Origin: a virus | Lineage: Duplodnaviria > Caudoviricetes | Reading direction: 5' to 3' (one strand) | Length of the DNA stretch: 52,536 nucleotides | IMG/VR virus record: IMGVR_UViG_3300043372_000056 | Span: 1-52,536 of that record | Part shown: positions 184 through 30,470 of the stretch, piece after piece | Position numbering within the stretch: the first letter of the stretch is position 1 | Layout of the letters: each line of letters opens with the position of its first letter | Notes under the pieces: model-generated | Told to the model about the DNA's origin: nothing | What the model saw: the letters and a program-made list of their open reading frames with translations, nothing else | The model's database searches: none | Program-made: the position numbers and the translations under genes

Positions 184-1555
184 TGAGAGACTGACCGTAA
201 CCTTGCTGGGCCGCCTGTGACTGTTCTCTAAGGATAGCCTCCTGCGTGTCTCTCAGAGCGCGAGAACCGAACTCGCCCATCCGATTGCTACCAAACTGCC
301 CAGCCTTGATGAAGGCGTCAGAGACTTGCGGCAGCAGGTTCTCGGACAGGTTGCGGGCACCCTGTTTTGCGATTACGTCTAGCACACCCTGCTGATAGGG
401 CGACATATATTGGCCGACCTGAGATGCCGACGTCTGACCGGCAGCGGACAGATACGGATTTGCCGCTGTCAAAGCGCGCTCAGCAAGCGATTGGGCTGTG
501 GTGCTCTCAGCCTTGCCCAACAAAGGCTGCGCCGCGCCCACAATGTCCATCGACCCGGCGCGATTAAGATACGGCTGCGCCGCGCCCACGATGTCCAGGG
601 CACCGGCGCGATCAAGGTATGGCTGGGCTGAACCTATAACATCCAAAGCCGACGCGCGCTGAAGATACGGATCAGCGGCTTTAACGCTGTCAAGGGCGTT
701 GGCTTTATCAAAATATTTTTGAGCCGCCCCGATACCACTTTTTGACGTAGCTTGATCAAAATAAGATTTGGCGGCACCCGCAATATCTTGAGATGCGGCT
801 CGATTAAGATAGGGTTGACCAGCCCCTATAATATCTTGAGATGCTGATCGTTGAATATAAGGCTGCGCGGCTCCTGTAATATCTTGAGATGCCGCTCGAT
901 CAAGATAAGGTTGAGCCGCGCCTGCAATATTTTGAGATTCAGCGCGTTGATAATAAGGCTGGGCCGCTCCTACAAAATTTTGAGACGCGGCTTGGTTAAG
1001 ATAAGGTTGCGCCGCTCCTGTAATATTTTGATACGCCGCTTGGCTCAAATAAGGTTGCGCGGCTCCCATGAGGTTTTGAGATGCGGCTTGGCCCATATAC
1101 GGCTGGGCCGATCCCAAAATATCTTGAGACCCGGCACGCTGAAGATAAGGCTGGGCGACCCCGGCAATGTCCATCCCGGCGGCTTGGCCATACAATTGCT
1201 GGCCAGCGTTAAGGCTTGAACCGACCAAATCTTGCCGAAGATACGGAGCCTGACCGGCTTTAAGCTGATCCGCGGTTCCCCTGCCGGAAAAATCCTTCAT
1301 GCCCGTGCTGGCAAAAGTCATGTCGGGCTGGTACGCCCCGACGTTCTTGTTTACGAGATCATACGCCTGCATCTGTTGCGGGGCAAAGCCCGCAACTGTC
1401 TCACCTGTATAAGGTGTATATGGCCGGTTAGCTATATTTGTCGATGTTTGAATTAAATTGTAAATAGCATCTTGCATCCACTTCGGTGTTTCCGAAGTGT
1501 TTTGTGCATACGATGTGGCAACTTGCGGCGTGCCCTGAAACAAACTTCCAGACAT
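1..1555 (-). CDS. 5' part of an ~888-aa repeat-rich putative ejection/DNA-pilot protein; continues across the circular junction into 51242-52353
   Basis: Not in the ORF track. Hand translation from ATG 1555 (overlapping the upstream TGA) is open to base 1: MSGSLFQGTPQ...ETPKWMQ...RPYTPYTGETVAGF...YMSPYQQGVLD...; it is in frame with ORF 51242..52501. Confidence 0.85.
   Translation of the reverse strand, partial: MSGSLFQGTPQVATSYAQNTSETPKWMQDAIYNLIQTSTNIANRPYTPYTGETVAGFAPQQMQAYDLVNKNVGAYQPDMTFASTGMKDFSGRGTADQLKAGQAPYLRQDLVGSSLNAGQQLYGQAAGMDIAGVAQPYLQRAGSQDILGSAQPYMGQAASQNLMGAAQPYLSQAAYQNITGAAQPYLNQAASQNFVGAAQPYYQRAESQNIAGAAQPYLDRAASQDITGAAQPYIQRSASQDIIGAGQPYLNRAASQDIAGAAKSYFDQATSKSGIGAAQKYFDKANALDSVKAADPYLQRASALDVIGSAQPYLDRAGALDIVGAAQPYLNRAGSMDIVGAAQPLLGKAESTTAQSLAERALTAANPYLSAAGQTSASQVGQYMSPYQQGVLDVIAKQGARNLSENLLPQVSDAFIKAGQFGSNRMGEFGSRALRDTQEAILREQSQAAQQGYGQSLSAAQADLARQAQLAGTVGSISGADLSRVLQGGAQYGNLGQTAGQLTGQQMQALTNLGQTTG
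500..1205 (-). repeat. ~14 degenerate 48-bp (16-aa) coding tandem repeats, consensus AQPYLxRAASQDIxGA
   Basis: Read directly from hand translation. Confidence 0.9.
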
Positions 1556-3552
1556 CAGGCAACTCCCTTCAAATAGGTAAGCGGAGATTTAGCATCCGGG
1601 CTGAATTTACCTCGGGCGAGGGTTTTGCCTTTGTGCTTGCGGATTTCCGCCCGCATTTCATCCAACCGCTTTGCACCCGCCTTGCTCGATCCATCACCGA
1701 GCATGGCGACGGTTTCCGCATCTATAACATACTCGCCATCAGAGAGTTTGGCATCAATTTCATCCGAGCGCCCGGTGCCGCCGCCTCGCACAAAACGAGA
1801 CATGGCATTCAAGCCGCCCTGCGCCATTGCCGGGGCTTTGTTGTATTCGCCGCCGCTGACCCGGTTCCAATTTTGCGCCATGAACTGATCGAGCGTAAGG
1901 TTGCTGCTTGCAGCGTCTGCTGAAAGTTTGTCCCAATCCCACACGATACTCGGGCGGTTGAAATATTCTTGCTGAGCGGGGGATAGGTTTCTGATTGCGC
2001 TCTGCACGGCGGGAGGCGCGGTTTTAGACGAACCCATGCCAGACAACGCCGCGAGAGCGGCACCGCCCGCAAGAAGTGGACCCAGCCGACCCAGAGTGCT
2101 GCCGGAGGATGTTGCACCGGTTGTCGCCGCCCCGACGCCTTCACCATAAGTGTCAGTGATATTTGGATTTGCGGTCAGATTTGTGGGTGCGGCTGCCTGC
2201 TGGGCAGACGGGTCCGTCATGCTAGTCATGAGCGCATTGTTGTTAAACGTAGGCGGCATAAGAGTGGGGTTTTCAGCCACCCCGGTGAGGCCGGTCAGGA
2301 ACGTGTTCCCGCCAAATCCTGGCGCAGCCGGTGCTGCGGTTGTTGTGGCTCCAGGGGCTGTGGGTGCCGCACCCGTGGCAATTTGTTGATTACCTTCGCC
2401 GCCGAAATCATAGCTGGCAACCGGGCTGGCATCGGATGCAGCCGGTGCTGCGCCGTTTGTCGTGTCGGCGGCGGGAGCAGCGGCAGACGACGATGTCAAG
2501 CTCGACAAAGACGGCAGGTTAGTTTTCAACAAGCCGCTGGCAAGACTGCCAAGACCGCCGAGACCACCGGCCTGCAAAGCCTCTGAAGGCGATTGGCCTG
2601 CGGTGAGGGCGTTACCGAAACCTCTTGTCGCTCCCGCCACCACGCGGTTCAAGTCGGCGTTCTCAATGCCGAGACCGCCCATCCCGCTAATGCCCGCACC
2701 AACAGCGCCTGTGATGGCCCCGGTGATCGGATCGCGGCCTTGGAGTGCGGAAGCACCGGCACCAGCCGCCGCGCCACCAAGAAGATTTGCCGTGCCTTCT
2801 GACAGACCCAAGCCAAACGCACTGTTGATCCCGCCACCCAGGACGTTACCTAGACCCGCGCCAATACCGCCGGTCACCGCCCCGGTTAGTGGATTTCCAC
2901 CGCCAATGGCAGATGACGCCGCGCCCATGGCAGCGCCACCCAACACGCCAGCCGCCGTGCTTGCGGAACTAAGCAACCCGCCAGTGAGGGCGCTACCGAT
3001 CATTCCGCCAATGCCGGGCACAATAATGCTAAGGGCAATGGGCGCAACCGCCGCCAAAACCTTGCCCCACTTTATTTTCTTTATCCAGCTTTTGTATTCA
3101 CGCAGCCCGGTGTTTGGGTTGATCGTTCCCGAACCACCCGCACGACGAAGCATCGCCGCTTCGCGCGGGTTGACGTGCGCCAGTTCAGTGTCACCGCCTC
3201 GACCCCGCGCGGCCAATTGCCGGGCGGCAACGCTCAAACCACCCCGGGCGTAACCTTTCTTCGACAGACGATCTTGCAGGCCATAGAGGGCGACGAGCAG
3301 TGACACAATATAAACTTGGTCGTATTGCTCGGGCAGCATCTCTTCATCAACCATGTCATCGGCAATGGCCTTAGACCTGATCTCTGCGTACTTGTTAGGA
3401 TTTTTGATAATCTTTTCAAGGGTTTCAATGCCCTCATCCAGATCGTCTGGCATGATTGGCATATTGACGACGGCGCGCTCCATGGCGTCCACCGCCTGGG
3501 CGAATTTCGGATCGCTTTGGGCGATCTGCATGATTTGTTCGCGCATCGACAT
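1555..3552 (-). CDS. Putative internal virion/ejection protein, Gly-rich with hydrophobic segments and two D-x3-A-x5-E domains
   Basis: 665-aa ORF after the tail nozzle; motifs YARGG...GRGGDTELAHVNPRE...INPNTGLREY and MAQGG...GTGRSDEIDAKLSDGEYVI. Confidence 0.7.
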   Translation of the reverse strand: MSMREQIMQIAQSDPKFAQAVDAMERAVVNMPIMPDDLDEGIETLEKIIKNPNKYAEIRSKAIADDMVDEEMLPEQYDQVYIVSLLVALYGLQDRLSKKGYARGGLSVAARQLAARGRGGDTELAHVNPREAAMLRRAGGSGTINPNTGLREYKSWIKKIKWGKVLAAVAPIALSIIVPGIGGMIGSALTGGLLSSASTAAGVLGGAAMGAASSAIGGGNPLTGAVTGGIGAGLGNVLGGGINSAFGLGLSEGTANLLGGAAAGAGASALQGRDPITGAITGAVGAGISGMGGLGIENADLNRVVAGATRGFGNALTAGQSPSEALQAGGLGGLGSLASGLLKTNLPSLSSLTSSSAAAPAADTTNGAAPAASDASPVASYDFGGEGNQQIATGAAPTAPGATTTAAPAAPGFGGNTFLTGLTGVAENPTLMPPTFNNNALMTSMTDPSAQQAAAPTNLTANPNITDTYGEGVGAATTGATSSGSTLGRLGPLLAGGAALAALSGMGSSKTAPPAVQSAIRNLSPAQQEYFNRPSIVWDWDKLSADAASSNLTLDQFMAQNWNRVSGGEYNKAPAMAQGGLNAMSRFVRGGGTGRSDEIDAKLSDGEYVIDAETVAMLGDGSSKAGAKRLDEMRAEIRKHKGKTLARGKFSPDAKSPLTYLKGVA

Positions 3553-8557: not shown

Positions 8558-8796
8558 GATAACTCCGTTTCTTTGATAATAGCCGTTGATGTGTCTCTAT
8601 CAATGTTTAAAACGCCAAAGCAAACGATGTTATAATCTTCGCTATCTGATTCTTTTTCGCTTTTGATCGGAACGTGAATGTCTAGGTGCTTAAAAAGATA
8701 TTCTCGGTCATCTTCAAAAACACGCCAAACATGATCCATTGTGCCCCGTCCAGGTTTTCCACGCGACTTGTTGAACCGTATGCGGTACTTGTTCAT
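8554..8796 (-). CDS. Hypothetical protein
   Basis: 80-aa ORF with ATGA overlaps at both ends. Confidence 0.75.
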   Translation of the reverse strand: MNKYRIRFNKSRGKPGRGTMDHVWRVFEDDREYLFKHLDIHVPIKSEKESDSEDYNIVCFGVLNIDRDTSTAIIKETELS

Positions 8797-9467
8797 ATCA
8801 CTTCTGCCGGTGGAAGTGGCTTGCAGTGGTTTATAGGCGCGCTCTGTTGGACCGTTAGATTGAAATGCACAAACTTGATGGGCTTATTGCTAGCGTGCCG
8901 CGTGAAGGAGTGGGCAAGCCAAGCGTTTGAGAAGATCATCAGCCCAGGCTTAGGTTTAAAGTTAATCATGCTGCTGGCAACGGTAGCTTGCGAAGCATCG
9001 CTTTGCGGCAAGTCGATCATGGTTTTGGCAACGCGAGGATCATGGAACACCACGCGAGAAGCGTTCTCTGGCACCTCAAGGAAATAGAAGCCCACAATCT
9101 GCGCGCCATAACCGTGCGTATGCTGATCCATGGCAGAGTGTTTGTGATGCTCCTGCGTCCACATTTCGGTGAACATGACGTTCTTGTCTTCCATGGCGTA
9201 GCCCTGCTCGGCCAGGATGTTCCAAGCGGACATGCCAATAAACTGAGCAAACTCAAAAACGCGCGGGTCATCGTAATAGTTTCCGCTCATTATGGCGGGA
9301 TAGATTTCATCAACCGGCTTTTCTTGCTTTGCCAGAAACTCGTCCGACACAGCGTTGACTGTCGCTAGGAAGTCAGGACGCTCAACCGTGTAAATGGGAG
9401 CGCCAAAATAAAACGCCGCCTGCAATTGCGGTTGAACCGGCAATGCTAATGGTGCGGCATTACACAT
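8793..9467 (-). CDS. Putative 2OG-Fe(II) oxygenase (TIGR02466-like)
   Basis: W...HTH, GFYFLEVP, FHDPR, PKPGLMIFSNAWLAH motifs; likely start MCNAAP at 9467 overlapping the upstream stop. Confidence 0.75.
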   Translation of the reverse strand: MCNAAPLALPVQPQLQAAFYFGAPIYTVERPDFLATVNAVSDEFLAKQEKPVDEIYPAIMSGNYYDDPRVFEFAQFIGMSAWNILAEQGYAMEDKNVMFTEMWTQEHHKHSAMDQHTHGYGAQIVGFYFLEVPENASRVVFHDPRVAKTMIDLPQSDASQATVASSMINFKPKPGLMIFSNAWLAHSFTRHASNKPIKFVHFNLTVQQSAPINHCKPLPPAEVI

Positions 9468-9948
9468 TCGGCACTTCCTCCCACCGCCACCCAAAGAAAT
9501 CAAACTGGTGCAGTTTGCCATCATCTGGTCGAGATGGCGCTTGTTTCCAGCCGCTCTCAGCACCACACCAAAAAACAATCACCCCCTCCACCGGATCGGG
9601 ACGAGGTATCGGAGGGATATACGAGCAGGTTGCCTCGTCAAACACCCATGCCGACCAGTTTTCCGCCTGTGGCCGTGTTGCCCAAGCATCTTTGACAACT
9701 TGCTGCTTGGCTGCAATTTCAGTTTCAGTCATTGGCCGCAATGACCACACATCGGTCCAGACGCCATCAACTTTTTGATAGGTGGGTTGGTCAGATTCTA
9801 GAATTTCATATATGCCGGGGATAGGGCGTTCAACGCGAGTAAAAGGCTCCCAATGATCGGGAACAACACCAAACGCTTGGATAAGGTTGTCTTCAAGCGC
9901 GGGATGGTTGACGGGTTGGTCGCTTTCAACCTGAATAAACAAGTTCAT
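9460..9948 (-). CDS. Hypothetical fibre-associated protein (possible assembly chaperone)
   Basis: 162 aa; WVFDEATCSYIPPIPRP motif; follows the Gly-rich fibre tip gene. Confidence 0.65.
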   Translation of the reverse strand: MNLFIQVESDQPVNHPALEDNLIQAFGVVPDHWEPFTRVERPIPGIYEILESDQPTYQKVDGVWTDVWSLRPMTETEIAAKQQVVKDAWATRPQAENWSAWVFDEATCSYIPPIPRPDPVEGVIVFWCGAESGWKQAPSRPDDGKLHQFDFFGWRWEEVPNV

Positions 9949-13958: not shown

Positions 13959-14267
13959 TTAGAACTCCAGATACCCGTCGCCATCTTCAGTGATGAAGAA
14001 CTCGTCGCCCTGCTCCTGAATAACACCAGCCGGGCGCGTATTGATAGGCGTATCAGGTCGATTGAACGGCAGCACAATCTGATCCGGTGCCCGGGGGGCG
14101 AGGCGATACGGGTCGTATTGATCACGGTCGAGATCGCACACCATGAGGCCGGGGAAATTCGGATCGGGCGAAAGCTCGGCAAGGAACATCTTGCGCGAGC
14201 AGCGCCCGCAGATACCGATGCCGTAGGTTGACTGACCGGTCGGATCGAGAAACTTGCCACCACTCAT
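13959..14267 (-). CDS. Small virion protein with CxxC...C motif
   Basis: ICGRC...GLMVC...DQYDP; C-terminal ITEDG motif. Confidence 0.7.
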   Translation of the reverse strand: MSGGKFLDPTGQSTYGIGICGRCSRKMFLAELSPDPNFPGLMVCDLDRDQYDPYRLAPRAPDQIVLPFNRPDTPINTRPAGVIQEQGDEFFITEDGDGYLEF

Positions 14268-15244
14268 GCGGTGTAGGCCCGAATGCCCGGGTTGATCTGG
14301 GTGGGCGAGCCGTCGTTATCCCCATCCCAGGCACGTTGCATGGATACGCTGGCGCGTGCTTCGAGTACAGGGATCAGGTTCAGATCGACAGCAGGCGTCT
14401 CAGCCGCCATGCGGGCAGCGAGGCCATTCGTGATAGCCTCGAGCCATCGGTCAGGCACCTCGACCTCCTGCTGAAGGTTCTCGGTGTCCATGATCTGGCG
14501 ATGCCGCCACAGCACAAGCTGGGCCTGCTCAGCCGCAGAGAACGGCGCGGGCCACAGGTACACCACCGGCTCGGGCAGGTCGCGCAGGAAATAGTAGCTG
14601 CTGGGTCGGCCCGGGAACACCTTGTTGGACTGGTTCACATAGCTGTCGCGGTTCAACTGCCCGAGCGGGATTTCCTGCGGCAGGTTGCCCAGGGTGATCG
14701 CGGTGTAGTTGATCGTGCTGGCCGAGGTGATGCGGAAATATTGGTATGGCAGGCCGACGCTGATGTCGGTCCATGTGATGTCACCGGCAACCGTCGTTGT
14801 CGTCTGCGTGCCGACCGTCACCCAGGTCGTGCCGTTATTGCTGACCTGAAATGTGAGGTTAACGCCCGCACCGCTCCACTCGACGCCCACCGTATTGACC
14901 ACGGTTGCGCTGGTGAAGTTCACCGTGTAGCTGGTCGAGGTACTCACCGTCGTGCCGCTGAGAAGCTGAAGCGTGCGATAGTTGAGGTTCAGCACCTCAA
15001 CCGTACCGACAGGCAGCGTCACCAGGGGCTGGTTCTCATACATCGGCAGAATGAGCTTCTCGATGCACCAGCTTGGCGTCTTGATGTTCGCAAGCTCAGA
15101 AAGCATGAGATAGAGCGAATCGAGAGCATAAGACTGCATCTCAGACGTGATAGCCTGGGCAGGCAGACGGCACCGCCGGAAGGCGTGATCAACCACCTTC
15201 AGCGCATTAAACGTGGTGCCGCCGATATTACCTGAGTAGGCCAT
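14264..15244 (-). CDS. Head-tail connector/adaptor-like protein
   Basis: AFRRC...SLYLMLSE...GRPSSYYF...YLWPAP...VPDRWLEAITNGLA; start moved to MAYSG (15244) after GGAG. Confidence 0.65.
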   Translation of the reverse strand: MAYSGNIGGTTFNALKVVDHAFRRCRLPAQAITSEMQSYALDSLYLMLSELANIKTPSWCIEKLILPMYENQPLVTLPVGTVEVLNLNYRTLQLLSGTTVSTSTSYTVNFTSATVVNTVGVEWSGAGVNLTFQVSNNGTTWVTVGTQTTTTVAGDITWTDISVGLPYQYFRITSASTINYTAITLGNLPQEIPLGQLNRDSYVNQSNKVFPGRPSSYYFLRDLPEPVVYLWPAPFSAAEQAQLVLWRHRQIMDTENLQQEVEVPDRWLEAITNGLAARMAAETPAVDLNLIPVLEARASVSMQRAWDGDNDGSPTQINPGIRAYTA

Positions 15245-15280
15245 GCTTTCTCCGCTCAAAGGCGACGGTCGCTGGTTCAG

Positions 15281-15332: not shown

Positions 15333-15875
15333 CTACTTCTTGGAAGCCTTGCGGGCTTCCGACATGCCAATCGCAACAGCCTGCTTGCGGTTCGTCACCA
15401 TGGGGCCGTTCTTGCTGCCGGAATGCAGTTCACCGGCTTTGAACTCGCCCATGACCTTGCCGACCTTGGACATGCCGCCCTTGGCCATGCCGCAGTCACT
15501 TATGCCGCCCTTGGCCATACCGCCTTTGGCCATGGCACGCATGGGCATGGCAGGGGCGCGAGCCATTGCGGCTTGGCGGTTTGCCAGAACTTGAGCCGTG
15601 GCCGCTTGAGCGGGAGTCATCGCCATGCCGCCCATAGCCATGTTCACCGAACCCTTGGCATGCGGCATCGGTGCGCCCTTGCCGTCAGACAGGAGGGTCT
15701 TAGCGGTGTTCTCCTTCTTGCTATAGAGCATGTCGCTCTTCGGGGCGGGCGAAGCGGCAGGCTTGGTTGACTTCATGTTACCCATAGCCATGCCGCCCTT
15801 GGCATAACCCGGTGCCGCCGTCTTACCGGCGGACGGAAACGTAAACTCAGAGACGTATTGCAGCGTCTTACCCAT
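15333..15875 (-). CDS. Small basic Met/Ala/Gly-rich protein with tandem MAKGG motifs and DUF6496-like C-terminus
   Basis: YAKGG, MAMGG, 3x MAKGG; KVMGEFKAGELHSG...RKQAVAIGMSEAR. Confidence 0.75.
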   Translation of the reverse strand: MGKTLQYVSEFTFPSAGKTAAPGYAKGGMAMGNMKSTKPAASPAPKSDMLYSKKENTAKTLLSDGKGAPMPHAKGSVNMAMGGMAMTPAQAATAQVLANRQAAMARAPAMPMRAMAKGGMAKGGISDCGMAKGGMSKVGKVMGEFKAGELHSGSKNGPMVTNRKQAVAIGMSEARKASKK

Positions 15876-20887: not shown

Positions 20888-23485
20888 CTATGGATTGGGG
20901 TTGATGCCGGTGCCGGTACTGACCGCCACCTTCTCGCCGGTCGCCATCTCGGCAGCGGCAAGCAATTTGGCGGTGTCGTTATCCGCCTGATTCATGCGCT
21001 CGCGAGAAGCAAGTTCCGCCGCCTTGCGCTCGTTCTCGGCGGCTTCCTTAAGCTGGTCGGCCCGCAGCTTCTCAACGAGTTCGATCTGCTTGCCCTGGAG
21101 CTTCGCCTGTTCAAGCTGGGCCTGCATCGCAAGACGCTGCTGCTCAAGTTGAGCCTTCTGCTGCTCAAGTTGAGCTTTCTGCTGATCAGACTGGGCCTGC
21201 ATTGCAAGACGCTGTTGATCAACCTGAACACGCTGCTGATCAACCTGAGCGCGCTGCTGGTCGGTCTGGGCGCGCTGCTGAATGGCCATCTGCTGCACCT
21301 GGGCACCAAGCTGGGCGACCTGCATGCTGCTGTCAGGCGGCATCTGCGGCTGGGGTGCAAACTGCTGGGCGGCCTGGTCGATAGCGGCGAGTTCCTGCGC
21401 CATCCCGCCCAACTGCTGCTCGATGTACTGCTGAACTTGCATGATGAGCTTGGCCTGATCCTCGGCCTCTTCTGGGATCAGTTCCTTTCTCTGAGCAATA
21501 TCAACAGAGTTATGAGCCTCAACGAGGTAATAATTCAGCAGGTGGTCGCGCAAATGCACCGAAATCGGATACAAAAACGTCTTGGTGATCGCCGGATTGC
21601 TGCCAAATAGCGGCGATTTCAGGAATGCCATGTGGATCATGATGTGAGCGAGGTGATCCTGCTTTGGCAGCACATAAACAGGCCGACCCATGGCGGCAGC
21701 GACGTTTTCGCTGACCGGGTCCATGTTATCCTTGCCCGGTTCCGGCTGGAGAACCTCATCTGCCGGGACTTTCAGGGTGCGGAGGAAGATTTCCTCGACC
21801 TTGCGGGGGTCATATAGCTGCGGTATCGCCGCTGCCCGCGCCATGATCGCCTGTATCTGGGCAAAACGCTGGGTTTCGGAGAAAATTGCCGGGTCACTGA
21901 CCGGCACGACGTCGAGCGGGCCATCAAAATCGGACGGGTCGATCTCCAGCCCGTCAGATTGGGCCGCGATGTCCTCTTCGGTCAGATATGCCGAGTTGAT
22001 CCGGTGCAGAATCTTGAAACACCGGGCCATCGAGTTGTGCAGGCGAGCGTGAATGCTCGAGAACACCACCATGCCCTGCTCGATCAGGGCCATCGTGGTG
22101 CCGACCGGCTGGTTGGCGTTCTGATCGCTCAGCTTCTCGAAGGAAGTCTGGATGACGCCCTTACCGGCATCAACCAAGAACCCCAAAAGCTGGAACAGCG
22201 TCGGGCTGGGCGGATTGAAAGGCATCGGCATGGCGATCTTGCGGACGTCGTCGACAAGAGCACCGCCATCCATCTCGACCACTTCGGTCGGCTGGAGGTT
22301 GATCGTCTGCCCGCCAGGGCCACCCTTGAGCTTCAGGAGAGTGGGGATGTTCTGGATGTGGGCGCTATCCAGCAAAGCGCGCAGGGCACCTGTAGCGGCT
22401 CCTGAGAGGCCCCCAATCATATGCGTCAGGCCAATGGGGTACGCACCGCGCCAAGGCACGAACGGGAACTCGACAATCCAATCGAGTTCCTGGTGCCGGG
22501 CATCATCCGCTTCCCAGTTGCGATAGAGTGCCAGGGCCTCGCCGGTCGACTTGTCGACGCTCAGAATGTACGGGCAGAGGTCTTCGTCTTCGATGTCGAG
22601 GTAGGTGTAGATTTCAAAGATGGTCCGCAGGCCATCCTCGTTGTAGCTAGTCGATTTGCGACCCTCAATCTTGTCGTTGGCAATCGTCGCCTTGCTGAAC
22701 TCGGGATCATCGGGATACCCCAGGTCAACGTCGATATACATGCCCGCCTTAACGCGCTTCAAGTACTCCATCTTCGTGACGTACTGAACATGCGTCTTAC
22801 GCTCGGCGGTGTAGAAGTTCGTGGCGGCAAACGGCAGATACACGTCGTCAATCGGCACAAACTCGGCCTGCGGACGACGGTGCTGCGGGTTCCACATGAA
22901 TTTGAGGTATTGACCGCCGCCGAGCGGAAGCTGGGTGCTCAGTTGCTCCAGTTCGCTGCGGAACTCGGGCATCTGCTGCGTGGTCTGCCAGTTCATAAAG
23001 GCGGCTTTACGCTCAGCCTTTTCGAGCTTGGCTTTGTCCGCTTCGCCGTAAATTTTGCTCTTAACCGGCCCGTTCGACGGAAAAATTTCTTTCATGAAGC
23101 GTGCGGAGAAATCCACGCAGGCTTCGACGAGCATTGGGTGAACGACTTTGTTCGCGCCGCTGAACTGAGCACCGCCGGGGGCATCGTCACCCAGGCCGGT
23201 ACGGCGCAGCCCTTCCTCGTACAGCTTGTCCCGCTTTTCGCGGGCCTCCTTGTCGCGCTCGATCTTATCGAGCAGGTCGCTGACAACATCCTTCAGCGCC
23301 GCCTGATCGACCTCTTCGACAATGTTTGCGAAGTGCTCGAGGTGGCGCTTCTCATCCTTGCTGTTCTCGAGCCGGATAATCGCGCCGCCGTCTTCGGTAT
23401 CCTCGACCTCGAGATTGTCCTCGTCATCGAGTTCAATCATCTCGCCGGGCTTGTCGTCGTCATCGTCTTTGAGAGTGTCAGACAT
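20888..23485 (-). CDS. Portal protein (P22-like, with Gln-rich C-terminal barrel)
   Basis: 865 aa; VVHPMLVEACVDF, QPVGTTMALIEQG, SSIHARLH, DVVPVSDP; QQR/QQK heptads at the C-terminus. Confidence 0.85.
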   Translation of the reverse strand: MSDTLKDDDDDKPGEMIELDDEDNLEVEDTEDGGAIIRLENSKDEKRHLEHFANIVEEVDQAALKDVVSDLLDKIERDKEAREKRDKLYEEGLRRTGLGDDAPGGAQFSGANKVVHPMLVEACVDFSARFMKEIFPSNGPVKSKIYGEADKAKLEKAERKAAFMNWQTTQQMPEFRSELEQLSTQLPLGGGQYLKFMWNPQHRRPQAEFVPIDDVYLPFAATNFYTAERKTHVQYVTKMEYLKRVKAGMYIDVDLGYPDDPEFSKATIANDKIEGRKSTSYNEDGLRTIFEIYTYLDIEDEDLCPYILSVDKSTGEALALYRNWEADDARHQELDWIVEFPFVPWRGAYPIGLTHMIGGLSGAATGALRALLDSAHIQNIPTLLKLKGGPGGQTINLQPTEVVEMDGGALVDDVRKIAMPMPFNPPSPTLFQLLGFLVDAGKGVIQTSFEKLSDQNANQPVGTTMALIEQGMVVFSSIHARLHNSMARCFKILHRINSAYLTEEDIAAQSDGLEIDPSDFDGPLDVVPVSDPAIFSETQRFAQIQAIMARAAAIPQLYDPRKVEEIFLRTLKVPADEVLQPEPGKDNMDPVSENVAAAMGRPVYVLPKQDHLAHIMIHMAFLKSPLFGSNPAITKTFLYPISVHLRDHLLNYYLVEAHNSVDIAQRKELIPEEAEDQAKLIMQVQQYIEQQLGGMAQELAAIDQAAQQFAPQPQMPPDSSMQVAQLGAQVQQMAIQQRAQTDQQRAQVDQQRVQVDQQRLAMQAQSDQQKAQLEQQKAQLEQQRLAMQAQLEQAKLQGKQIELVEKLRADQLKEAAENERKAAELASRERMNQADNDTAKLLAAAEMATGEKVAVSTGTGINPNP

Positions 23486-26400
23486 ATCCAGCCTCGATTT
23501 GATTGGCGAGCGTGTTTACCGCGTCAGGATCATAGATAGCAGGTTGAGCACTGACCGCGCCACCCTCGGCATATTTTTGGTCTAGGTCAGCAACTGCCGC
23601 ACCCGCTGCAACCGGCGCTGCGCCAAACATCAATCGCTCAAACTGGCGAATCTGCGCCGTTCGGTCAGCATCATCCCTCGATGCCAACCGGTTGTAATAT
23701 CGGATGTCATCAACACCGTACCGGCGAAGCAAATCTGTCACGTCTTTCGATGCTTGCACAGGAACCACCGCGCCTTGGAACTCGTTCAGCGGCACTATCC
23801 GGCGAGGCTTGGCCTCGAAATAGGTGGCGGGCAAATCGCGGCCTGCTTCCAGATGTGCCCGCGTGCGTTCAAGCAGGTCTTCGGGAATTGCGTTGCCGTA
23901 ATAGTTGCGATTGATATATTCCATGCCGCCGGGGCCACGTTGCACGGCTTCGGCCATGTTGCGAGTGTGGCTATCAATGAAATTAAAATTATCACGAATG
24001 CTATCTGGCAGTGCCTCGCGAAACTCTTGACGCAAAGCACCTAGTTGATTCTGCCAATCCTCAACAGACTTATCCGTGCGGGGCACCAAGCGGTCTCTCG
24101 CTCCACGCAGTTCGCTCATGTTGCGAAACTGCGGCGTGATCTGCCCCAGCAGCCAATTATCGGTGATGAAATCCTCGCCACCACGCCATGGATCATTGGT
24201 CATGACACGCAAGGCGTTTCGAGGCGTGTGCGGTAAAAGGCGCGATTCCCCGGTGTCGTCGTTGTAAAGACGCACATATTCTTTTTCTCGGTCACGAACT
24301 GTTTTCGGTATGACAGATGGATAACGCGGCGTGTAGGCGTCGCGCGCGTAGACCGGGGTGCGCCTAGGATCGACAGTCTGCGGCGATGCTATCAATGAAA
24401 TTTCACCGAAGCTGTCCATCGGATCATCGGCGCGCGAGATGCCAATTGAAGGGGCCACGACAACGCCTTCGTTATTGGCAATCTTCTCCAACCCCGCCTG
24501 CCGAACATTGTGCATGGCCACCATCGGCGGCTCATCCGGCGTTTGGCGGCCTAACGCCCTACCCACAGCGCGACGCAGCCCACCCGCTTCCGCCTCGCTC
24601 GGCTCCATCGCCATCAGAGCCGTCGAACCTGCCAGCCGGGCCATACGACCCCCCGGCCCAAGCGCCACCATCAGGGCCGCATCCAGAGGGCTCTGCGGCA
24701 GGAAGATGTCCGACGCCAACTGGGCAGCATCATAGCCTGCGCTGCGTATAGCCCGAGCCTGTTCGGCATTGGTTGACTCGGTGGTGCGGCCCGTGTCGCG
24801 CTTCATGCGCTCGAGCAGGCGGCGGTCATACTCCTCGTCGCTCATGACGCGGCCACCCTCGGCATACCGCTGATCAAGTTCTTCGAGGCTCGGCGCGGCT
24901 TCGCCTTCACGGGCGAGGATCGCAGCGGGTGCCACGCCTGCCAGCGGGATCATGTTGCGCGTGTAGAGGCGCAGCACCTCCTCCGGTGGGATGTCCAAAG
25001 CCTGGGAGGTGATTGACATGCGCTGGTTGAGCAGTTCCGGCACCGTGTGGGCCTCGGATGCCAAGCCGGTGCGAGGGCCATAGTGAAACCACATCAGGGC
25101 CTGGGCATCGGCAGGCGTCAGCCCCAGCCGCTCGGCGATGTTCGTCGTGATGTCGTTGTAAATCGGATACTCGGTCGAAATGCTCTGGCCGCGCACCTTT
25201 TGGCCGCTGGGGCGGGCGACGAGTATCTCACGCAGTTCGTCGTCACTCATCCCACGAACGACACCCTCAGCGTTGGGTGTGTAAGCGTCGACATACTCCC
25301 GATATTTTGCGGCGGTATCAAACGACGACGCCGGGAGACCGCCGGGGTTCACGTCGTTGTAGATCATGTTAACGGCCCGGACGTTGTGAACGTCGGCGGT
25401 CACGGCAGTGCGGTCACCAGAGATGTTGCGCCCAAAGACGGTAGGCTTCGGGTTCTGGGCCAGACTGACCGTCCCTTCCAGCAAGCCTTGTGTCAGGGCC
25501 GGGTGCTGGTCGTAGATCATGCCATAACCGGAACCAGGGCCGGTCACGTTTTCGACGGTGTTCTTGTCTATCGGCAGGCCGCGCGCCATCCGGTTCTGGA
25601 GGAACGCTGAATTGAGCACGTTCTGCTCGGTGTCGGTGCGGGGGCTGGTGCCCGCAATAGCCTGGGATTCCTGGCGGATGCGGCGCAGGGCCTCATCGTG
25701 GGAAACACCCTGCCCGCGCAGGACGTCATAGACCGGGCGCATGTTGTAGAACTCACCGGCACGGGCCGATGCGATCTGGGCCGGTGTCGCACCGGGCACC
25801 TCTTCACCACGCATGATGCGTGCGATGGGGTCCAGATCGCCAACGATCCGGTCCATGGTGGTGCCGTATCTTTCCGCCAGATCGGATGCCAGACCAGCCG
25901 CCGCCCGCGATCCGGGCAGTGATTGTGTCGGTGAGATATTCTGAATGCGAAGTGATTCGAGTTCCTGAGCGACGTTTGACGGCCCAGCTTCCAATGGCTG
26001 GTCAAAACGTGCTGGCGGAAACAACTGATCTTCTGGCCGGGGCTGAACACGGGCGTCGACCGGCAAGCGCATCTGGGCGGCGCGGAAGTCGAGCACCCGC
26101 TGAGAGAGTTCGTTCGCCCGCTCCAGATCATCACCCTCGAGGCGTGGCACACCAGCCCCTGGCTGGGGTCGGGTGGCGATAGCCATCGCCTCGTCGGGCG
26201 TCATGGTGGGCTTGAGAACGCTCCGGGGCGGGTTGTTGCCGCCCATTACCGCCCTCGGGTTTTCGACAACAGGCTCAGGGGCCGAGCCCCGCACCGCACG
26301 ACGAAGCGCGCCCACGGTACGCTTCACGCGGCCACCGCTTTCATACTTCTGATGCAGATCAGCCAGCCCACCCTCAGCGTAACCCATAGCCCGACCAATC

Positions 26401-27434
26401 CGCTCACGGGCTTCGGCGGCCATGATGGATTCAGGAGCCACGTCATAGCGCGCGGCGAGCCTGTCCAGCACCATGGCGTTCAGTTGGTCCGCCGTCAGTT
26501 CCTCGCGCGGGGCCGGGCGCGGTGCGCGAGGCGTGCGGATGCGGTTTGCTCGGACGTGATAATCAAAAGCCGGAATTGGAGTCGCCACACCAGGAACTTC
26601 AACAAGGTTACCACGGGAATACTTATGATCAAGTTCAGCGAGGCCACCCTTGGCATAGCCGGGCATGCCAGCATTCCGCATGACGGTGGGCACATAGGCC
26701 CGCGTCTCAGCAATGTCGGGGATAGCGTTGCCCGCTTCTGCCACCCGTCGAGGGCCTGCGTTGTACGCCGCCAGGGCCAGCGTCATGTCACCGCCAAACC
26801 GGTCAAGCTGCTGGCGCAGGTAACGTGCGCTGCCCTCGATGTTCTGCATCGGGTCACGAGGATCAACGCCCAAATCGCGCGCCGTGCCCGGCATCAGCTG
26901 GCCGAGACCGAGAGCGCCCACCCGGCTCACCGCATTAGGGTCAAACCGGCTCTCTCGATGTAGCAGCGACAGCAGCACGTTGGGCGGCAGGCCATACCGC
27001 TCGGCCATCTGCGTGGCCGTCGCCACATACGGGTTCTCTGGGTTGAACCGGACATGCAGGGGCTGAGGTTCGGCACCGGGCACCTGCGGCAACACAGCGG
27101 GCGGGATGGGATTGCCGTCAGCACCCAACTGAGGGGGCCGTGGGGGCACCGGGAGTGCCTGGGCAGGGGTACGGGCCTGCGGCGCGGCAGCGGCCTGTGG
27201 CGCGGCCTGCTGGGGCGGTGGCGGCGGTATCACGGCAGGCGGCGTCGGCGGGATCGGCAGAGGCTGTTGGCGCTGGCCACCAAACAGCGGGGCGGTGGGA
27301 CCCGCACGCCGCTCACGGGCGAAAGCAGCTATCGGGTCAAACGGGGCCTCGCGGTTTGCAGCATTTGACCGACGCATCTGCTCGAGCAGGCCCAAGGCGG
27401 TCATGCGGGGAGGGGCGTTGTTGCGTTCGGCCAT
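23478..27434 (-). CDS. Multidomain (polyvalent) putative virion protein: Pro-rich N-terminus, SLT lytic transglycosylase, HhH-glycosylase-like (DUF7178-like) domain, ART-like domain
   Basis: SLT motifs HRESRFDP, GALGLGQLMPGTA, LAAYNAGP, ETRAYV (~26680-27040); the other domains are from motif recall; domains are separated by YxxGG motifs. Confidence 0.75.
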   Translation of the reverse strand: MAERNNAPPRMTALGLLEQMRRSNAANREAPFDPIAAFARERRAGPTAPLFGGQRQQPLPIPPTPPAVIPPPPPQQAAPQAAAAPQARTPAQALPVPPRPPQLGADGNPIPPAVLPQVPGAEPQPLHVRFNPENPYVATATQMAERYGLPPNVLLSLLHRESRFDPNAVSRVGALGLGQLMPGTARDLGVDPRDPMQNIEGSARYLRQQLDRFGGDMTLALAAYNAGPRRVAEAGNAIPDIAETRAYVPTVMRNAGMPGYAKGGLAELDHKYSRGNLVEVPGVATPIPAFDYHVRANRIRTPRAPRPAPREELTADQLNAMVLDRLAARYDVAPESIMAAEARERIGRAMGYAEGGLADLHQKYESGGRVKRTVGALRRAVRGSAPEPVVENPRAVMGGNNPPRSVLKPTMTPDEAMAIATRPQPGAGVPRLEGDDLERANELSQRVLDFRAAQMRLPVDARVQPRPEDQLFPPARFDQPLEAGPSNVAQELESLRIQNISPTQSLPGSRAAAGLASDLAERYGTTMDRIVGDLDPIARIMRGEEVPGATPAQIASARAGEFYNMRPVYDVLRGQGVSHDEALRRIRQESQAIAGTSPRTDTEQNVLNSAFLQNRMARGLPIDKNTVENVTGPGSGYGMIYDQHPALTQGLLEGTVSLAQNPKPTVFGRNISGDRTAVTADVHNVRAVNMIYNDVNPGGLPASSFDTAAKYREYVDAYTPNAEGVVRGMSDDELREILVARPSGQKVRGQSISTEYPIYNDITTNIAERLGLTPADAQALMWFHYGPRTGLASEAHTVPELLNQRMSITSQALDIPPEEVLRLYTRNMIPLAGVAPAAILAREGEAAPSLEELDQRYAEGGRVMSDEEYDRRLLERMKRDTGRTTESTNAEQARAIRSAGYDAAQLASDIFLPQSPLDAALMVALGPGGRMARLAGSTALMAMEPSEAEAGGLRRAVGRALGRQTPDEPPMVAMHNVRQAGLEKIANNEGVVVAPSIGISRADDPMDSFGEISLIASPQTVDPRRTPVYARDAYTPRYPSVIPKTVRDREKEYVRLYNDDTGESRLLPHTPRNALRVMTNDPWRGGEDFITDNWLLGQITPQFRNMSELRGARDRLVPRTDKSVEDWQNQLGALRQEFREALPDSIRDNFNFIDSHTRNMAEAVQRGPGGMEYINRNYYGNAIPEDLLERTRAHLEAGRDLPATYFEAKPRRIVPLNEFQGAVVPVQASKDVTDLLRRYGVDDIRYYNRLASRDDADRTAQIRQFERLMFGAAPVAAGAAVADLDQKYAEGGAVSAQPAIYDPDAVNTLANQIEAGYV

Positions 27435-27722: not shown

Positions 27723-27886
27723 TTCTTCTTCGCCGCTCGCATGTTGTCGACCAGATTTGGGTAGGGTCGACCGGCAGACTTGGCCATAGCCTTAGCCGAT
27801 GCCTTGCGCTTCGATGACAGTTCCTTGCTCTCGCCCAGATCGGCGGGGCGCTTCTTGTCCCAGATCGGCTTAGGGCTACGCGGCAT
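27719..27886 (-). CDS. Small basic protein (55 aa)
   Basis: Not in track; MPRSPKPIWDKKRP...AKSAGRPYPNLVDNMRAAKKK; overlaps the terL end and the next start. Confidence 0.7.
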   Translation of the reverse strand: MPRSPKPIWDKKRPADLGESKELSSKRKASAKAMAKSAGRPYPNLVDNMRAAKKK

Positions 27887-30470
27887 AAGGGTTCACCTTT
27901 TCACGTCGAAATTGTGGCGGCTCATCGCGTTCTCGAGCCTGTGGCAGTTCAAACCATCGCTCATTCTTCAAAAACAGAATGGCCTGGGTGAATGTATCGA
28001 CGTAATCATCATGTTCTGCAACCGGAAACTTGGCCAACTGCTTGATGCAAGGCTGTGCCCAGCTTACCGGCTGGCCCCTGTTCTTCCCCGACTCGGGCAC
28101 CCAGACGAAACCTAGCTCCAGTGTCGGGGCGGCCTGATGGGCTCGGCTGACCTTGTCGGCCATGCCCGGGTTGTAGCCCACCGCAGGCACGCGGGCCTGG
28201 CGCAGGTCTTGCAGCAGCGATTGACCGCTGGCCTTAGCCTCGACGAGTATCCGGTCGGGCTTGCGCGGGCGGCGGATGCCATCTTTGACCGATGTCGCAC
28301 CATACTCGGTCGACCAGTCTTTGATCGCCCGGGCGCGCAGGTCAGGATAGCTGAGGTGCTCGTCCCAGGCGTCAATGAGCAGGATGTTGCGTTGACCGCT
28401 GTGGGTGAAGACGGCCCACACCGTGCAGGCTGTCGGATCGCCGCTAGTTTTCTCGGTGAATGCACAATCGTACGATTGCAGGATGTATTCAAACTGCGGC
28501 AGCGGCTTGTCGGCAGGCCATAGCTGTATCTCAGATGTCTTCAGAATGCCGCCCGTGCTCGGCGTCGGATCCTGCTGAAGCTGACCAGCAGTGCCGTACA
28601 CGCCGAGCAATTGTTTCAGTTCAGTGATTTCTTTTGGGCCAAAACGCTCGGCACAGATCAACTCGCCTTTGACCTGGCGCGGATCATACGGGCCGAGCAC
28701 CGTCCTGCGCCGCACACCATCCCACTCAGCCGGAATGAGCAGGTGCTCCCAGCCCCCGATGTCCTCGAGAATGTGTCCCGATATGTCGCGCTCGTGCAGG
28801 CGCTGCATAATCGTGACCATGGCGTCTTTTTTCGGATCGTTCAGGCGCGTGCTCCAGACCACGTCGAACCACTCGAGGGCGCTGCTGCGGATGGCATCGC
28901 TCTGGGCCTCTTGAGCACTGTGAGGGTCATCGAGAATGAGGCGGGAGCCACCCTCACCCGTCGCCGTGCCACCCACTGACGTGGCAAGCCGGTAGCCCGT
29001 CCTGTCATTCTCAAACCGCTGCTTGGCATTCTGGTCGCCGCTCAGCTTGATCAAATGCCCCCAGCGTTCCTGATACCAGGGCGACTGAATGAGGCGGCGA
29101 GCCTTGAGGTTGTCGCGGATGCTCAGGTTACCGCTGTAGCTGGCGCAAAGATATTTATGTTCGGGGTTGGTCAGCCATTCCCACATCGGCCACATCACGC
29201 TGACGATAGTGGATTTGGAATTATGGGTGACGATGTACCCGTCACCAACCATGAACAGGCCGTCTGCGCGATCAACGCGGATGCACTGCGTACTGTCGAC
29301 CTCATCAAGCTTTTCAATCTTGATGTATCGGCCAAATTTCGGATCAGTAGATTTTGTTCTGTTTTCTTTCCGCGAAAGATGGGCGACGTCTTTCGCATAA
29401 AAAGAAACTTTCCATGTCGGCCCAACGTCCCGACCATCCAAAGTGGCTCTAGTTTCTATGGAGTTTGCCTTAATTCCAAGGCTCCTGAGCAGGCGAAGAA
29501 CTTGATTGATAAAAGCAAAGTTACTTTGAGCAAAGAAGCATTGACCGCCGACGGCTATGTTGCCGTCGGTGTCCATCAGGCCTTTGAGAAGATCCCGGCG
29601 CTGCGACACGCTTGCCTGAAGATATTGCTCAGGGATGTGTTTGTTATTTATCAGGTTAAGCTTTCGAAGCTCGGTCATGAGGCCGAGGATCGTATGCCGA
29701 TATCGTGCTTGCGGTTTCCTCACCATGTAGCCTCTGCGCTCGATTTCAGCGCAGACCTCTACCGCGTCTTCCTCAGACATTGTGAAGCTGCTGTTGGCCG
29801 ATGTTCCATCCCCCAGCCAGACACCGAGAACATATGGGTCGACGGGAAGATCCTTGTGTCCATGCTGAGACGCTGCGAAATTCGGCAGTCGAGGCAGCCT
29901 GACATCTTTAGTCGGACGATTGAAGTTTAGCTCAGTTGCGCCGCCGCGCTTTTTTCTCAGAAACGCGCCGTTCTGTCGGTGCCAGAGCTCTTCTGTCGTG
30001 TAATCGTTGAATTGCTTGTATTTTCTATCAAGCCTAACTGTCCAAATATGGTCGCCGTCAACGTCGACGAAAGCGCCATCGTCTGTCCAAACGCGATAGA
30101 TCGGCCTGTCATTAAACACTTCAGACTTGCCAAGAACTTGAACAAGCTGGCCATCCGGGCCGAAGACCATGTCTCCAACATTGAGATCTTCGACCGATAT
30201 CATCCCGCGCATGGTTGGCACAATCGTACCAAGGCGAAGCGCGTGACGCGGCGGGATGTTGATCAACAGCTTGCGAAGCTGCCCGGCAGTGATCGCCTCC
30301 AAATGTTCACATATCTCTTCGATGTGCCACGACGGCACGAACGGCACGCCAGGCTCCACGACGTGCCAGGACTGCTTCACGAACTCGTACATGCTGGCCG
30401 AGGCCGCGCGCCGTTCCTGCTCCCGCCGGATCATGTCGAGCATGACAGCGGGGCTGAGAGGCTTGTTCAC
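27876..30470 (-). CDS. terL: Terminase large subunit containing an intein
   Basis: Walker A NIPPRH/SKS split by the intein; Walker B LILDDPH; MQRLHERD; nuclease QSYDCAF...HDDYVD. Confidence 0.95.
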   Translation of the reverse strand: MNKPLSPAVMLDMIRREQERRAASASMYEFVKQSWHVVEPGVPFVPSWHIEEICEHLEAITAGQLRKLLINIPPRHALRLGTIVPTMRGMISVEDLNVGDMVFGPDGQLVQVLGKSEVFNDRPIYRVWTDDGAFVDVDGDHIWTVRLDRKYKQFNDYTTEELWHRQNGAFLRKKRGGATELNFNRPTKDVRLPRLPNFAASQHGHKDLPVDPYVLGVWLGDGTSANSSFTMSEEDAVEVCAEIERRGYMVRKPQARYRHTILGLMTELRKLNLINNKHIPEQYLQASVSQRRDLLKGLMDTDGNIAVGGQCFFAQSNFAFINQVLRLLRSLGIKANSIETRATLDGRDVGPTWKVSFYAKDVAHLSRKENRTKSTDPKFGRYIKIEKLDEVDSTQCIRVDRADGLFMVGDGYIVTHNSKSTIVSVMWPMWEWLTNPEHKYLCASYSGNLSIRDNLKARRLIQSPWYQERWGHLIKLSGDQNAKQRFENDRTGYRLATSVGGTATGEGGSRLILDDPHSAQEAQSDAIRSSALEWFDVVWSTRLNDPKKDAMVTIMQRLHERDISGHILEDIGGWEHLLIPAEWDGVRRRTVLGPYDPRQVKGELICAERFGPKEITELKQLLGVYGTAGQLQQDPTPSTGGILKTSEIQLWPADKPLPQFEYILQSYDCAFTEKTSGDPTACTVWAVFTHSGQRNILLIDAWDEHLSYPDLRARAIKDWSTEYGATSVKDGIRRPRKPDRILVEAKASGQSLLQDLRQARVPAVGYNPGMADKVSRAHQAAPTLELGFVWVPESGKNRGQPVSWAQPCIKQLAKFPVAEHDDYVDTFTQAILFLKNERWFELPQARERDEPPQFRREKVNPYAA
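29220..30242 (-). mobile_element. 341-aa intein (Ala1, class-3 WCT signature) with LAGLIDADG homing endonuclease
   Basis: Starts ALRLGT, ends IVTHN/S; DHIW (block B), TQCIRV (block F); LGVWLGDG and LKGLMDTDG. Confidence 0.92.

Follow-up and report, generated by a model that had tools for sequence, protein, structure and literature searches.

A candidate ejection protein of an apparently short-tailed phage ends in a sequence module shared with siphovirus tape measure proteins

In phage T5 the tape measure protein pb2 is cut after R1127 (PMC10038345). Once the receptor is bound, the cleaved protein has its last 43 residues inserted between the hub subunits; these docked residues come after 46 hydrophobic, presumably membrane-spanning residues (two transmembrane-like helices) and a further nine residues. 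For the tape measure protein (TMP) of phage JBD30, two helices and a short hairpin at residues 1022-1066 have been predicted to make up a hook, by which, as the authors of that work speculate, the TMP is anchored in the baseplate in a way similar to T5 (PMC11445458). In phage lambda a C-terminal peptide of about 14 kDa is removed from gpH, the site and the catalyst of this cut being given as not known in the 2025 Ur-lambda paper (PMC12617516). We have analyzed a virus record of 52,536 bases (IMGVR_UViG_3300043372_000056; estimated to be 97% complete), the whole of which is referred to here as the window, and in particular one of its genes, which encodes a 665-amino-acid (aa) protein named P0001. 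This protein ends in a module, D2, which by sequence profile comparison is the same module as that found in true siphovirus TMPs, where it lies near the C-terminus or beside embedded cell-wall hydrolase domains. A second module, D1, lies in the N-terminal part of P0001, and both modules are preceded by a short xAxGG motif, the tag. The coordinates of all features are collected in Table 1.

A word-based search with residues 540-665 of P0001 found 2848 related proteins, and when cluster representatives were searched exhaustively with residues 566-665, 8158 clusters (formed at 50% identity) fell in the D2 family at E<=1e-3 and 2949 at E<=1e-10. D2 stands at the extreme C-terminus in 149 of the best representatives. 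The alignment of 149 representatives (A1) gave the consensus G.G.GRSD.I.A.LSDGEYV.DAETVA.LGDGS...GA..LD.MR..R.HKG..LA.GK.SP.AKSPL.YLKG, and in it G594, D597, S604, E607, G619, G621, S622, G626, R634, K641, G648 and Y660 are invariant. When residues 562-665 were searched by tblastn, 64 phage records were matched, mostly in annotated TMPs, and 45 of these records are mycobacteriophages. The TMP of phage Douge was matched twice by phmmer among PDB sequences, at 959-1004 and 1412-1450 (E=4.2e-9), and a hidden Markov model (HMM) of the podovirus-type D2 recovered two copies each in Faja and Douge as well as the copies in Nitrincola, ReqiPine5 and Colwellia 9A, with domain E-values of 1e-8 to 5.5e-11. 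The profile of an 11-sequence, TMP-inclusive alignment of the module (A3), to which the JBD30 sequence does not belong, matched the JBD30 TMP at 1018-1094 (E=2e-12), and the hook predicted at 1022-1066 falls inside this match. The similarity of D2 to bona fide TMP copies is significant at the profile level; it is marginal for lambda gpH with the D2 HMM (E=0.051), and the same HMM did not detect T5 pb2. General scans gave only weak PHROG matches of residues 554-622 to five tape-measure families (E 1e-4 to 7e-3), and no Pfam match to P0001 at E<=0.1.

The signature of the hook module, A-x-G-G...G-x-G...(S-D)...(A)...G-E-[FYH]-[VI], is present at residues 577-609 of P0001; in D2 it takes the fuller form A-x-G-G...G-x-G-x-S-D-x-I-x-A-x-L-S-x-G-E-[FY]-V, and two helices follow. 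Among the 11 modules of A3 the A-x-G-G, one glycine and the G-E pair are invariant, and S-D and the alanine are kept in 10 of the 11; the exception is lambda, which has a tyrosine at the position of D597 and a glycine at that of A601. E607 is kept in every homologue examined. The lambda gpH sequence runs HFATGG-FTGTGGKYEPAGIVHRGEFV-FTKEATSRIGVGNLYRLMRG-YATGG, and a second tag, found as IPRFASGG, MPQFSTGG, LPRFDSGG or RGYATGG, closes the TMP copies about 45-50 residues downstream. The first-pass annotation of this DNA, made from the letters alone, had named a motif of this kind in siphovirus TMPs and in lambda gpH; both statements proved correct, with [FY]AxGG...SDxIxAxLSxGE in the former and HFATGG...GIVHRGEFV...RGYATGG in the latter. 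A strict tag lies ahead of D2 in 118 of 120 orthologues, at a spacing of 21-22 residues, and in 68 of 144 representatives. A hydrophobic stretch ahead of the module was considered as a general rule and ruled out, as it is present in 37 of 125 representatives and not in the actinophage TMPs; membrane-like segments do adjoin the module in P0001, lambda, Nitrincola and GB2A. None of the proteins scanned had Pfam cover over the D2 module, and a limited set of literature searches found no paper that describes it as a family.

Some TMP copies have hydrolase neighbors. In Douge, D2-type modules at 964-1010 and 1412-1460 flank a Pfam match to NlpC/P60 (1295-1331), and in ReqiPine5 the closing YATGG (1009) stands directly before an NlpC/P60-like segment recognized by eye; the module may therefore bracket embedded cell-wall hydrolases. 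Two metagenomic proteins of 1707-1779 aa, P0398 and P0399, end in a D2 variant, GQSDDIPAMLADGEFVFPADVVSALGNGSSKAG, and P0399 also carries PF13946.

P0001 is built of three parts, a charged head (residues 1-160) ending in D1, a Gly/Ala-rich middle of about 360 residues that is almost without charges and has hydrophobic stretches at 159-218, 276-296 and 487-508, and a charged tail (521-665) ending in D2. By its composition the middle is Gly/Ala-rich low-complexity sequence and not coiled coil. The D2 of P0001 shares with the hook region of siphovirus TMPs (JBD30 gp46 1022-1066, Douge gp16, Faja, Nitrincola 1M3-16, Colwellia 9A and ReqiPine5) the A-x-G-G, the G-x-G, the S-D, the alanine, the G-E-[FYH]-[VI] and a helix pair, and several of these hooks follow a Gly-rich hydrophobic segment; residues 729-797 of lambda gpH show a weak likeness to it. 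Unlike the TMPs, P0001 is only 665 aa long, lacks a long coiled-coil ruler and has no tube or chaperone genes that could be found nearby, and its D2 lies at the very C-terminus with a tail of its own (GKFSP.AKSPL.YLKG), whereas the TMP copies are followed by the second tag and a hub-binding helix. T5 pb2 resembles P0001 in the order of hydrophobic segment, short docking piece and cleavage site, the T5 cut lying before A-E-G-G, but the T5 hook (1085-1127) and the region after the cut have no detectable similarity to D2.

The gene of P0001 also has features of the ejection protein genes of short-tailed phages. As with P22 gp7/gp20/gp16 and T7 gp14/gp15/gp16, it belongs to a run of large genes placed after a tail hub gene, its product has membrane-like segments, and a giant protein bearing a transglycosylase is encoded elsewhere in the genome; general Pfam and PHROG scans gave no match to the P22 and T7 ejection proteins, with which a direct sequence comparison was not made. 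It is preceded by a 77-aa open reading frame (ORF) and the gene of a 612-aa hub-like (P22-gp10-like) 'virion structural/stabilization' protein (phrog_3287), and is followed by three large genes with products of about 949 aa, 465 aa and 706 aa, so that it lies, like podovirus ejection protein genes, in a block after the tail hub gene together with other large internal-protein genes. The order of hub-like gene, P0001 and large genes recurs in GB2A, DSL-LC04 and Venkman. A close counterpart of D1 heads gp46 of Venkman (302 aa), the first ejection-module protein of Venkman/HTVC010P-like marine podoviruses, which is 76.5% identical over query residues 121-154 and is the third gene after the 'stabilization protein', a position as in the P0001 block; it differs in having D1 at its extreme N-terminus without a tag, and in having neither D2 nor a long Gly-rich middle. 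Phage DSL-LC04, in which a 759-aa protein has both D1 and D2, shares the N-terminal part of P0001 (query residues 12-172). No tail tube, sheath or tail chaperone was matched among the 34 proteins scanned against PHROG, and although such an absence of HMM matches is weak evidence, the phage is read, from its gene content, as apparently short-tailed.

Our preferred reading, made by analogy with the T5 and JBD30 hooks and held at slightly less than even confidence, is that P0001 is a tape-measure-like channel or ejection protein whose C-terminal end is latched to the tail channel by D2. D2 itself is most likely not an enzyme. It would be a hook or latch that is unstructured alone and folds against a partner, and would fasten the ejected, membrane-inserting protein by its end to the tail tip or hub channel, so that the membrane channel and the tail stay aligned; D1 lies at the opposite side of the membrane-like region, and a second latch would be the simplest guess for its role. 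An AlphaFold2 model of residues 531-665, made with a 149-row alignment, had a mean predicted local distance difference test score (pLDDT) of 72. In this model the helical subdomain ahead of the module, whose FNRP..DW..NW is conserved in the A1 consensus, is well formed, the stretch from A-x-G-G to S-D is unstructured (pLDDT <50 at 576-600), and D2 has helices at 612-618 and 623-641 and no strands; the tag in cis remains undocked in the monomer. The disorder of the A-x-G-G...S-D segment is as expected of a piece that folds on a partner. The D1 model had a mean pLDDT of 52, with a helix at 105-116 after tag 1, and a three-copy complex of residues 531-665 predicted from A1 gave run scores of 0.00, 0.83 and 0.14. 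Fold searches with the D2 model found no PDB match at E<=0.001 by Foldseek and a best Z of 2.9 among 48161 chains by VIA-align; in BFVD they found only uncharacterized viral proteins, reached through sequence likeness, and in the ESM Atlas only viral hypothetical clusters, an apparent match to crAss_CARG1 being discarded as its score of 0.77 is at chance level.

Several observations weigh against such a latch. No structure shows the module docked, those of Douge, lambda and JBD30 being resolved for no more of the TMP than its last 30-40 residues, and the D2 HMM detects no similarity in the sequence of the T5 hook. Phages of Gram-negative bacteria and of Actinobacteria share the module although their hubs are unrelated, and a hub-specific latch is awkward to reconcile with its strong conservation. 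The Douge copies are internal (starting at 964 and 1412 of 1699 residues), far from the hub-binding end and flanking NlpC/P60; a hairpin of the JBD30 type is not predicted in the D2 model; the hydrophobic stretch precedes the module in only some proteins (the 37 of 125 representatives given above); and the short tail is itself inferred from gene content.

Both tag and D-x3-A-x5-E elements of P0001 were located exactly where the first-pass annotation had placed them. In 20000 shuffles of the protein the D-x3-A-x5-E pattern, seen twice, had a mean of 0.17 (P(>=2)=0.0125), and the combination of a tag followed within 5-25 residues by D-x3-A-x5-E had P(>=2)=5e-5 (20000 shuffles of P0001); the pattern is thus more than chance, and its conservation across relatives is a stronger argument than shuffling. 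The consensus of D1 is G.xGDTELAHVNPxExxxLxxxGGSGTINPxTGLxEY, with G117, G120, D121, A125, H126, E131, L135, G139, G140, G142, N145 and T148 invariant in 91 sequences; A125 is replaced by valine in at least six wider D1 relatives. A D1 variant, AH[IV][TN]R[GD]E at about residue 120, occurs in P0038, P0066 and 12 other orthologues, and it ends in G-E (in one case D-E), like D2. In all 84 of 84 orthologues a tag lies 20 residues ahead of D121. The shorter proteins found with residues 90-175 carry D1 in 114 of 120 cases and D2 in one of 120, and in 77 of these 114 D1 lies inside the first 35 residues, leaving no room for a tag. The D1 HMM matched Venkman gp46 and DSL-LC04 only and no TMP, and D1 was found in only four records of the phage collection. 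D2 occurs without D1 in a 580-aa protein of GB2A (Caulobacter phage RW/GB2A), and six listed representatives have D2 joined to unrelated N-termini. On these distributions in sequence databases D1 is a separate and separable module of podovirus-type proteins.

The first-pass annotation had taken D1 and D2 for paralogues, a claim that found no significant support once the alignments were built by homology. The best profile-profile alignment falls in the register then proposed in most comparisons, and motif-anchored segments that include the upstream tag gave P=0.0016, at a score that none of 100 column shuffles attained. The test free of motif anchoring, in which the homology-derived D1 alignment (A2) was compared with A1, gave P=0.49 (35 of 100 shuffles reached the score); trimmed homology-derived alignments gave P=0.2 and 0.17, hhalign of A2 against A3 gave P=0.73 in a different register, and a core-only set gave P=0.03 after removal of 14 D1-type rows. 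The result therefore ranges from P 0.0016 to 0.73 depending on how the profiles are constructed. In our reading the likeness comes mostly from a shared linker cassette ahead of two different modules; true paralogy is possible but not established.

This cassette is widespread in the virion proteins of the phage. The 38 larger ORFs contain 15 copies of the motif [FYWM]-A-x-G-G, where 1.25 are expected and 500 shuffles gave at most 5. Five of the copies lie in a 180-aa protein with DUF6496, four in a 1318-aa protein, two in P0001 and one each in the proteins of 465, 706, 214 and 278 aa. The tag is usually part of a longer unit such as YAEGG-LAELDQKY-AEGG, and YARGG-LSVAARQLAARG-RGG and MAQGG-LNAMSRFV-RGGG of P0001 look like the same cassette. 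The xAxGG tag makes up the leading half of this linker cassette, which runs aromatic-A-x-G-G, short helix, x-x-G-G and marks the borders between modules in several virion proteins of the phage. Among them, the 1318-aa internal virion protein (23478-27434, minus strand) has an SLT transglycosylase domain at 142-235, a PBECR5 nuclease-like domain at 971-1064 and a match below the cut-off to DUF7178 at 589-693, and its recognized domains are separated by four YA[KE]GG cassettes. At 10 loci compared, relatives that overlap the tag regions of this protein keep the cassette with 3-6 tags, which in L012, L019 and L021 are often in tandem (YAEGG-LAELDQKY-AEGG). In L013 the approximately 500 residues between the tags at 352 and 857 are absent exactly from tag to tag (...RAMGYAEGG joined to RVMSDEEYD), and the same segment is a free-standing, tagless protein of 563-630 aa in five related contigs. 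In the DNA of the 1318-aa gene no direct-repeat family ranks above the cassette, which has four copies of 35 nucleotides at 69-71% identity. So low an identity points to selection on the peptide and makes a poor substrate for homologous recombination. Within the ejection modules of related phages tags are not enriched in GB2A (1) or Venkman (0) and are slightly so in DSL-LC04 (3 against 0.5 expected). The 180-aa protein (15333-15875, minus strand) consists of the five M/Y-A-x-G-G repeats (MAKGGMAKGG...MAKGG) followed by DUF6496 (131-180).

The first-pass annotation had also placed the motif near the maturation cleavage of lambda gpH, and this finds support in two systems. At the cut after R1127 T5 pb2 reads FVPR/AEGG (cut at the slash), so that AEGG comes next, one of only two A-x-G-G in the 1219 residues of pb2; by eye only, this sequence resembles the TMP closing bracket IPRFASGG. 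In lambda gpH, cuts before the A-x-G-G at 707, 711, 718 or 734 would give fragments of 14.8 to 12.5 kDa, in keeping with the peptide of about 14 kDa. The link rests on one mapped site that was spotted after the fact, no D2 module is detectable by the D2 HMM after the T5 cut, and the coincidence is suggestive. Among the papers listed by a literature search on tape measures and autoproteolysis, none uses the term 'tape measure protein'.

Two of the rival explanations go back to the first-pass annotation, which saw D1 and D2 as small acidic-dyad domains serving as proteases or as receptors for the tag. As proteases they would cut in trans at the xAxGG of other virion proteins and replace a prohead protease. 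The invariance of D597/E607 and D121/E131 in close families and the enrichment of tags in virion proteins favor this, as does the absence, already remarked upon in that annotation, of a recognized conventional prohead protease among the 34 proteins scanned with PHROG; P22- or T7-like short-tailed phages, however, do without one. No peptidase family was found for P0001 (Pfam at E<=0.1; PHROG gives TMP families only), the fold searches with the D2 model gave no match, and no compact fold was predicted around the D/A/E residues of either module, where a juxtaposed dyad had been envisaged. A hairpin of the JBD30 type would, we infer, put D597 and E607 at opposite ends. The proposed catalytic residues are not invariant in all homologues including the cleaved ones, since the first Asp is absent in lambda, which together with T5 makes up the only two phages whose TMP cleavage is proven, and A125 varies as noted; D1 and D2 moreover occur widely apart, and without tags elsewhere in the genome. 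As a protease candidate the finding is probably wrong, and trans-cutting by the two modules is very improbable. Slightly better placed, though still quite improbable, is a network in which D1 and D2 bind xAxGG strands contributed by other internal proteins and so link the ejection proteins to one another for packaging or for an ordered exit. Tags are indeed present in the 1318-, 706-, 465- and 180-aa proteins, the D2 core is disordered alone as would be expected if it folded on a partner, and the TMP copies are bracketed by a tag on either side. Yet the tag of D2 is in cis at a fixed spacing in nearly all orthologues and does not dock in the monomer model, most short D1-bearing proteins (77 of 114) have no room for one, and related phages that have the modules carry no extra tags. 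What stands of the first-pass annotation is the motifs and their link to TMPs and lambda gpH; the proteases and the tag receptors are not supported.

The remaining explanations are all unlikely, each of them a good deal less so than a tag-binding network. The tags may be no more than a conserved flexible linker that serves recombinational module swapping and has no biochemical role of its own. The tag-to-tag absence in L013, the 3-6 and often tandem tags of L012, L019 and L021 and the rank of the cassette as top direct-repeat family with four copies of 35 nucleotides all fit this explanation, but the copies are only 69-71% identical in DNA, which suggests that the peptide is under selection, and recombination alone hardly explains why A-x-G-G is invariant in the TMP modules of phages that are unrelated. 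Given about the same weight as the linker, binding to the envelope would have D2, and perhaps D1, attach after ejection to a common part of the envelope (peptidoglycan or the membrane surface) and position the channel or a neighboring hydrolase. It would suit a module shared by phages of Proteobacteria and Actinobacteria with unrelated hubs, which has NlpC/P60 domains as neighbors in the TMPs of Douge and ReqiPine5 and adjoins membrane-like segments in P0001, lambda, Nitrincola and GB2A; against it, there is no similarity to a known cell-wall-binding family or fold, and no direct evidence. Processing, at best on a par with these two, would make the A-x-G-G motifs cleavage sites and the G-E module an aid to the cut, either by self-processing or by presentation to a host or phage protease, with P0001 and the 1318-aa protein as polyproteins. 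It draws on the T5 cut directly before one of only two A-x-G-G in pb2, on the size of the lambda fragment, on the position of the four tags of the 1318-aa protein between recognized domains, on the free-standing occurrence of its 352-857 module in five related contigs and on the NlpC/P60 domains flanked by TMP copies of the module. It is weakened by resting its mapped cleavage on the single T5 site noticed after the fact, by the lack of a detectable D2 module beside that site, by the loss in lambda of the Asp of the proposed dyad, by the lack of any autoproteolytic fold or family and by the unenriched GB2A and Venkman modules. A 1973 T5 paper, to judge by its title, reportedly involves the host in tail-protein cleavage, and this was also counted against it. 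The specific form in which A-x-G-G and the G-E module are a conserved maturation cassette of tape-measure and ejection proteins, cut just before the alanine, is improbable.

Table 1. Features of the P0001 gene and tags of the 1318-aa protein in the window (residue numbers refer to the encoded protein)
Feature	Coordinates	Strand	Basis
Gene of P0001, 665-aa tape-measure-like candidate ejection protein	1555..3552	minus	ORF list
Charged N-terminal region, residues 1-100	3253..3552	minus	kept in orthologues; charge profile
Tag 1, YARGG, residues 101-105	3238..3252	minus	opens linker cassette YARGG, short helix, RGRGG
D1 core, residues 117-156, GRGGDTELAHVNPREAAMLRRAGGSGTINPNTGLREY	3085..3204	minus	invariant residues in 91 sequences
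GRGG-D121-TEL-A125-HVNPR-E131	3160-3204	minus	located in translation
Gly/Ala-rich, almost uncharged region, residues 160-345, including hydrophobic stretches (159-195 the strongest)	2518..3075	minus	Kyte-Doolittle windows; charge counts
Low-complexity Ala/Pro/Thr/Gly linker, residues 346-486	2095..2517	minus	composition by 40-residue block
Second hydrophobic stretch, residues 487-508, LGRLGPLLAGGAALAALSGMGS	2029..2094	minus	Kyte-Doolittle windows
Small helical subdomain, residues 531-575	1828..1962	minus	AlphaFold2, pLDDT 93-97, three helices
Tags 2 and 3, MAQGG (576-580; 1813-1827) and FVRGG (587-591; 1780-1794)	1780..1827	minus	linker cassette ahead of D2
D2 core, residues 592-641, GTGRSDEIDAKLSDGEYVIDAETVAMLGDGSSKAGAKRLDEMRAEIRKHK	1630..1779	minus	invariant residues; HMM matches to TMPs
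GTGRS-D597-EID-A601-KLSDG-E607-YV	1726-1779	minus	located in translation
Conserved C-terminal tail, residues 642-665, GK.LA.GKFSP.AKSPL.YLKG	1558..1629	minus	149-representative alignment
Tag YAKGG, 1318-aa protein residues 260-264	26643..26657	minus	between SLT domain and next module; in DNA repeat family
Tag YAEGG, 1318-aa protein residues 352-356	26367..26381	minus	tag census; relatives
Tag YAEGG, 1318-aa protein residues 857-861	24852..24866	minus	tag census; relatives; DNA repeats
Tag YAEGG, 1318-aa protein residues 1288-1292	23559..23573	minus	tag census; relatives; DNA repeats

Within the C-terminal tail of P0001, G648 and Y660 are invariant and S651, A654, K655 and P657 are kept in at least 90% of the sequences. 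The ORFs at 2-1555 and 51242-52534 (both on the minus strand) are in frame across the ends of the record, the two bases at one end and the one base at the other making up one codon; this points to a probable circular permutation of the record, with the two ORFs as parts of one protein of about 949 aa. This protein contains about a dozen tandem repeats of about 16 residues (AAQPYL.RA.SQDI.G), and its C-terminal part has a weak match to a 'DNA ejection protein' PHROG. Elsewhere in the window, the large terminase (864 aa, 27876-30470, minus strand) has LAGLIDADG_3 (residues 290-340) and a weak Hint_2 match (80-113) between its terminase parts, a likely intein-like insertion. A 2OG-Fe(II) oxygenase-like gene (8793-9578, minus strand) lies among structural and lysis genes, and a 331-aa protein (14264-15259, minus strand) combines an SU10 adaptor match with a galactose-binding-like domain.

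P0001 is best filed as a tape-measure-like ejection protein that combines the TMP hook module D2 with the podovirus-specific D1 and the tag-bearing linker cassette. If the maturation cassette were real, it would account for the cut that turns lambda gpH into gpH*, and P0001 and the 1318-aa protein would be polyproteins cut into free modules during assembly or ejection; in any case the tag observation bears on the site and the mechanism of the lambda gpH cut, a question that dates from 1974. Few conserved parts of phage DNA-delivery proteins are as widespread as D2, which has had neither a Pfam family nor a solved structure. It forms a link between the tape measures of long-tailed phages and the internal ejection proteins of short-tailed ones, and its presence in both supports the view that the two kinds of protein do the same job at the host envelope.

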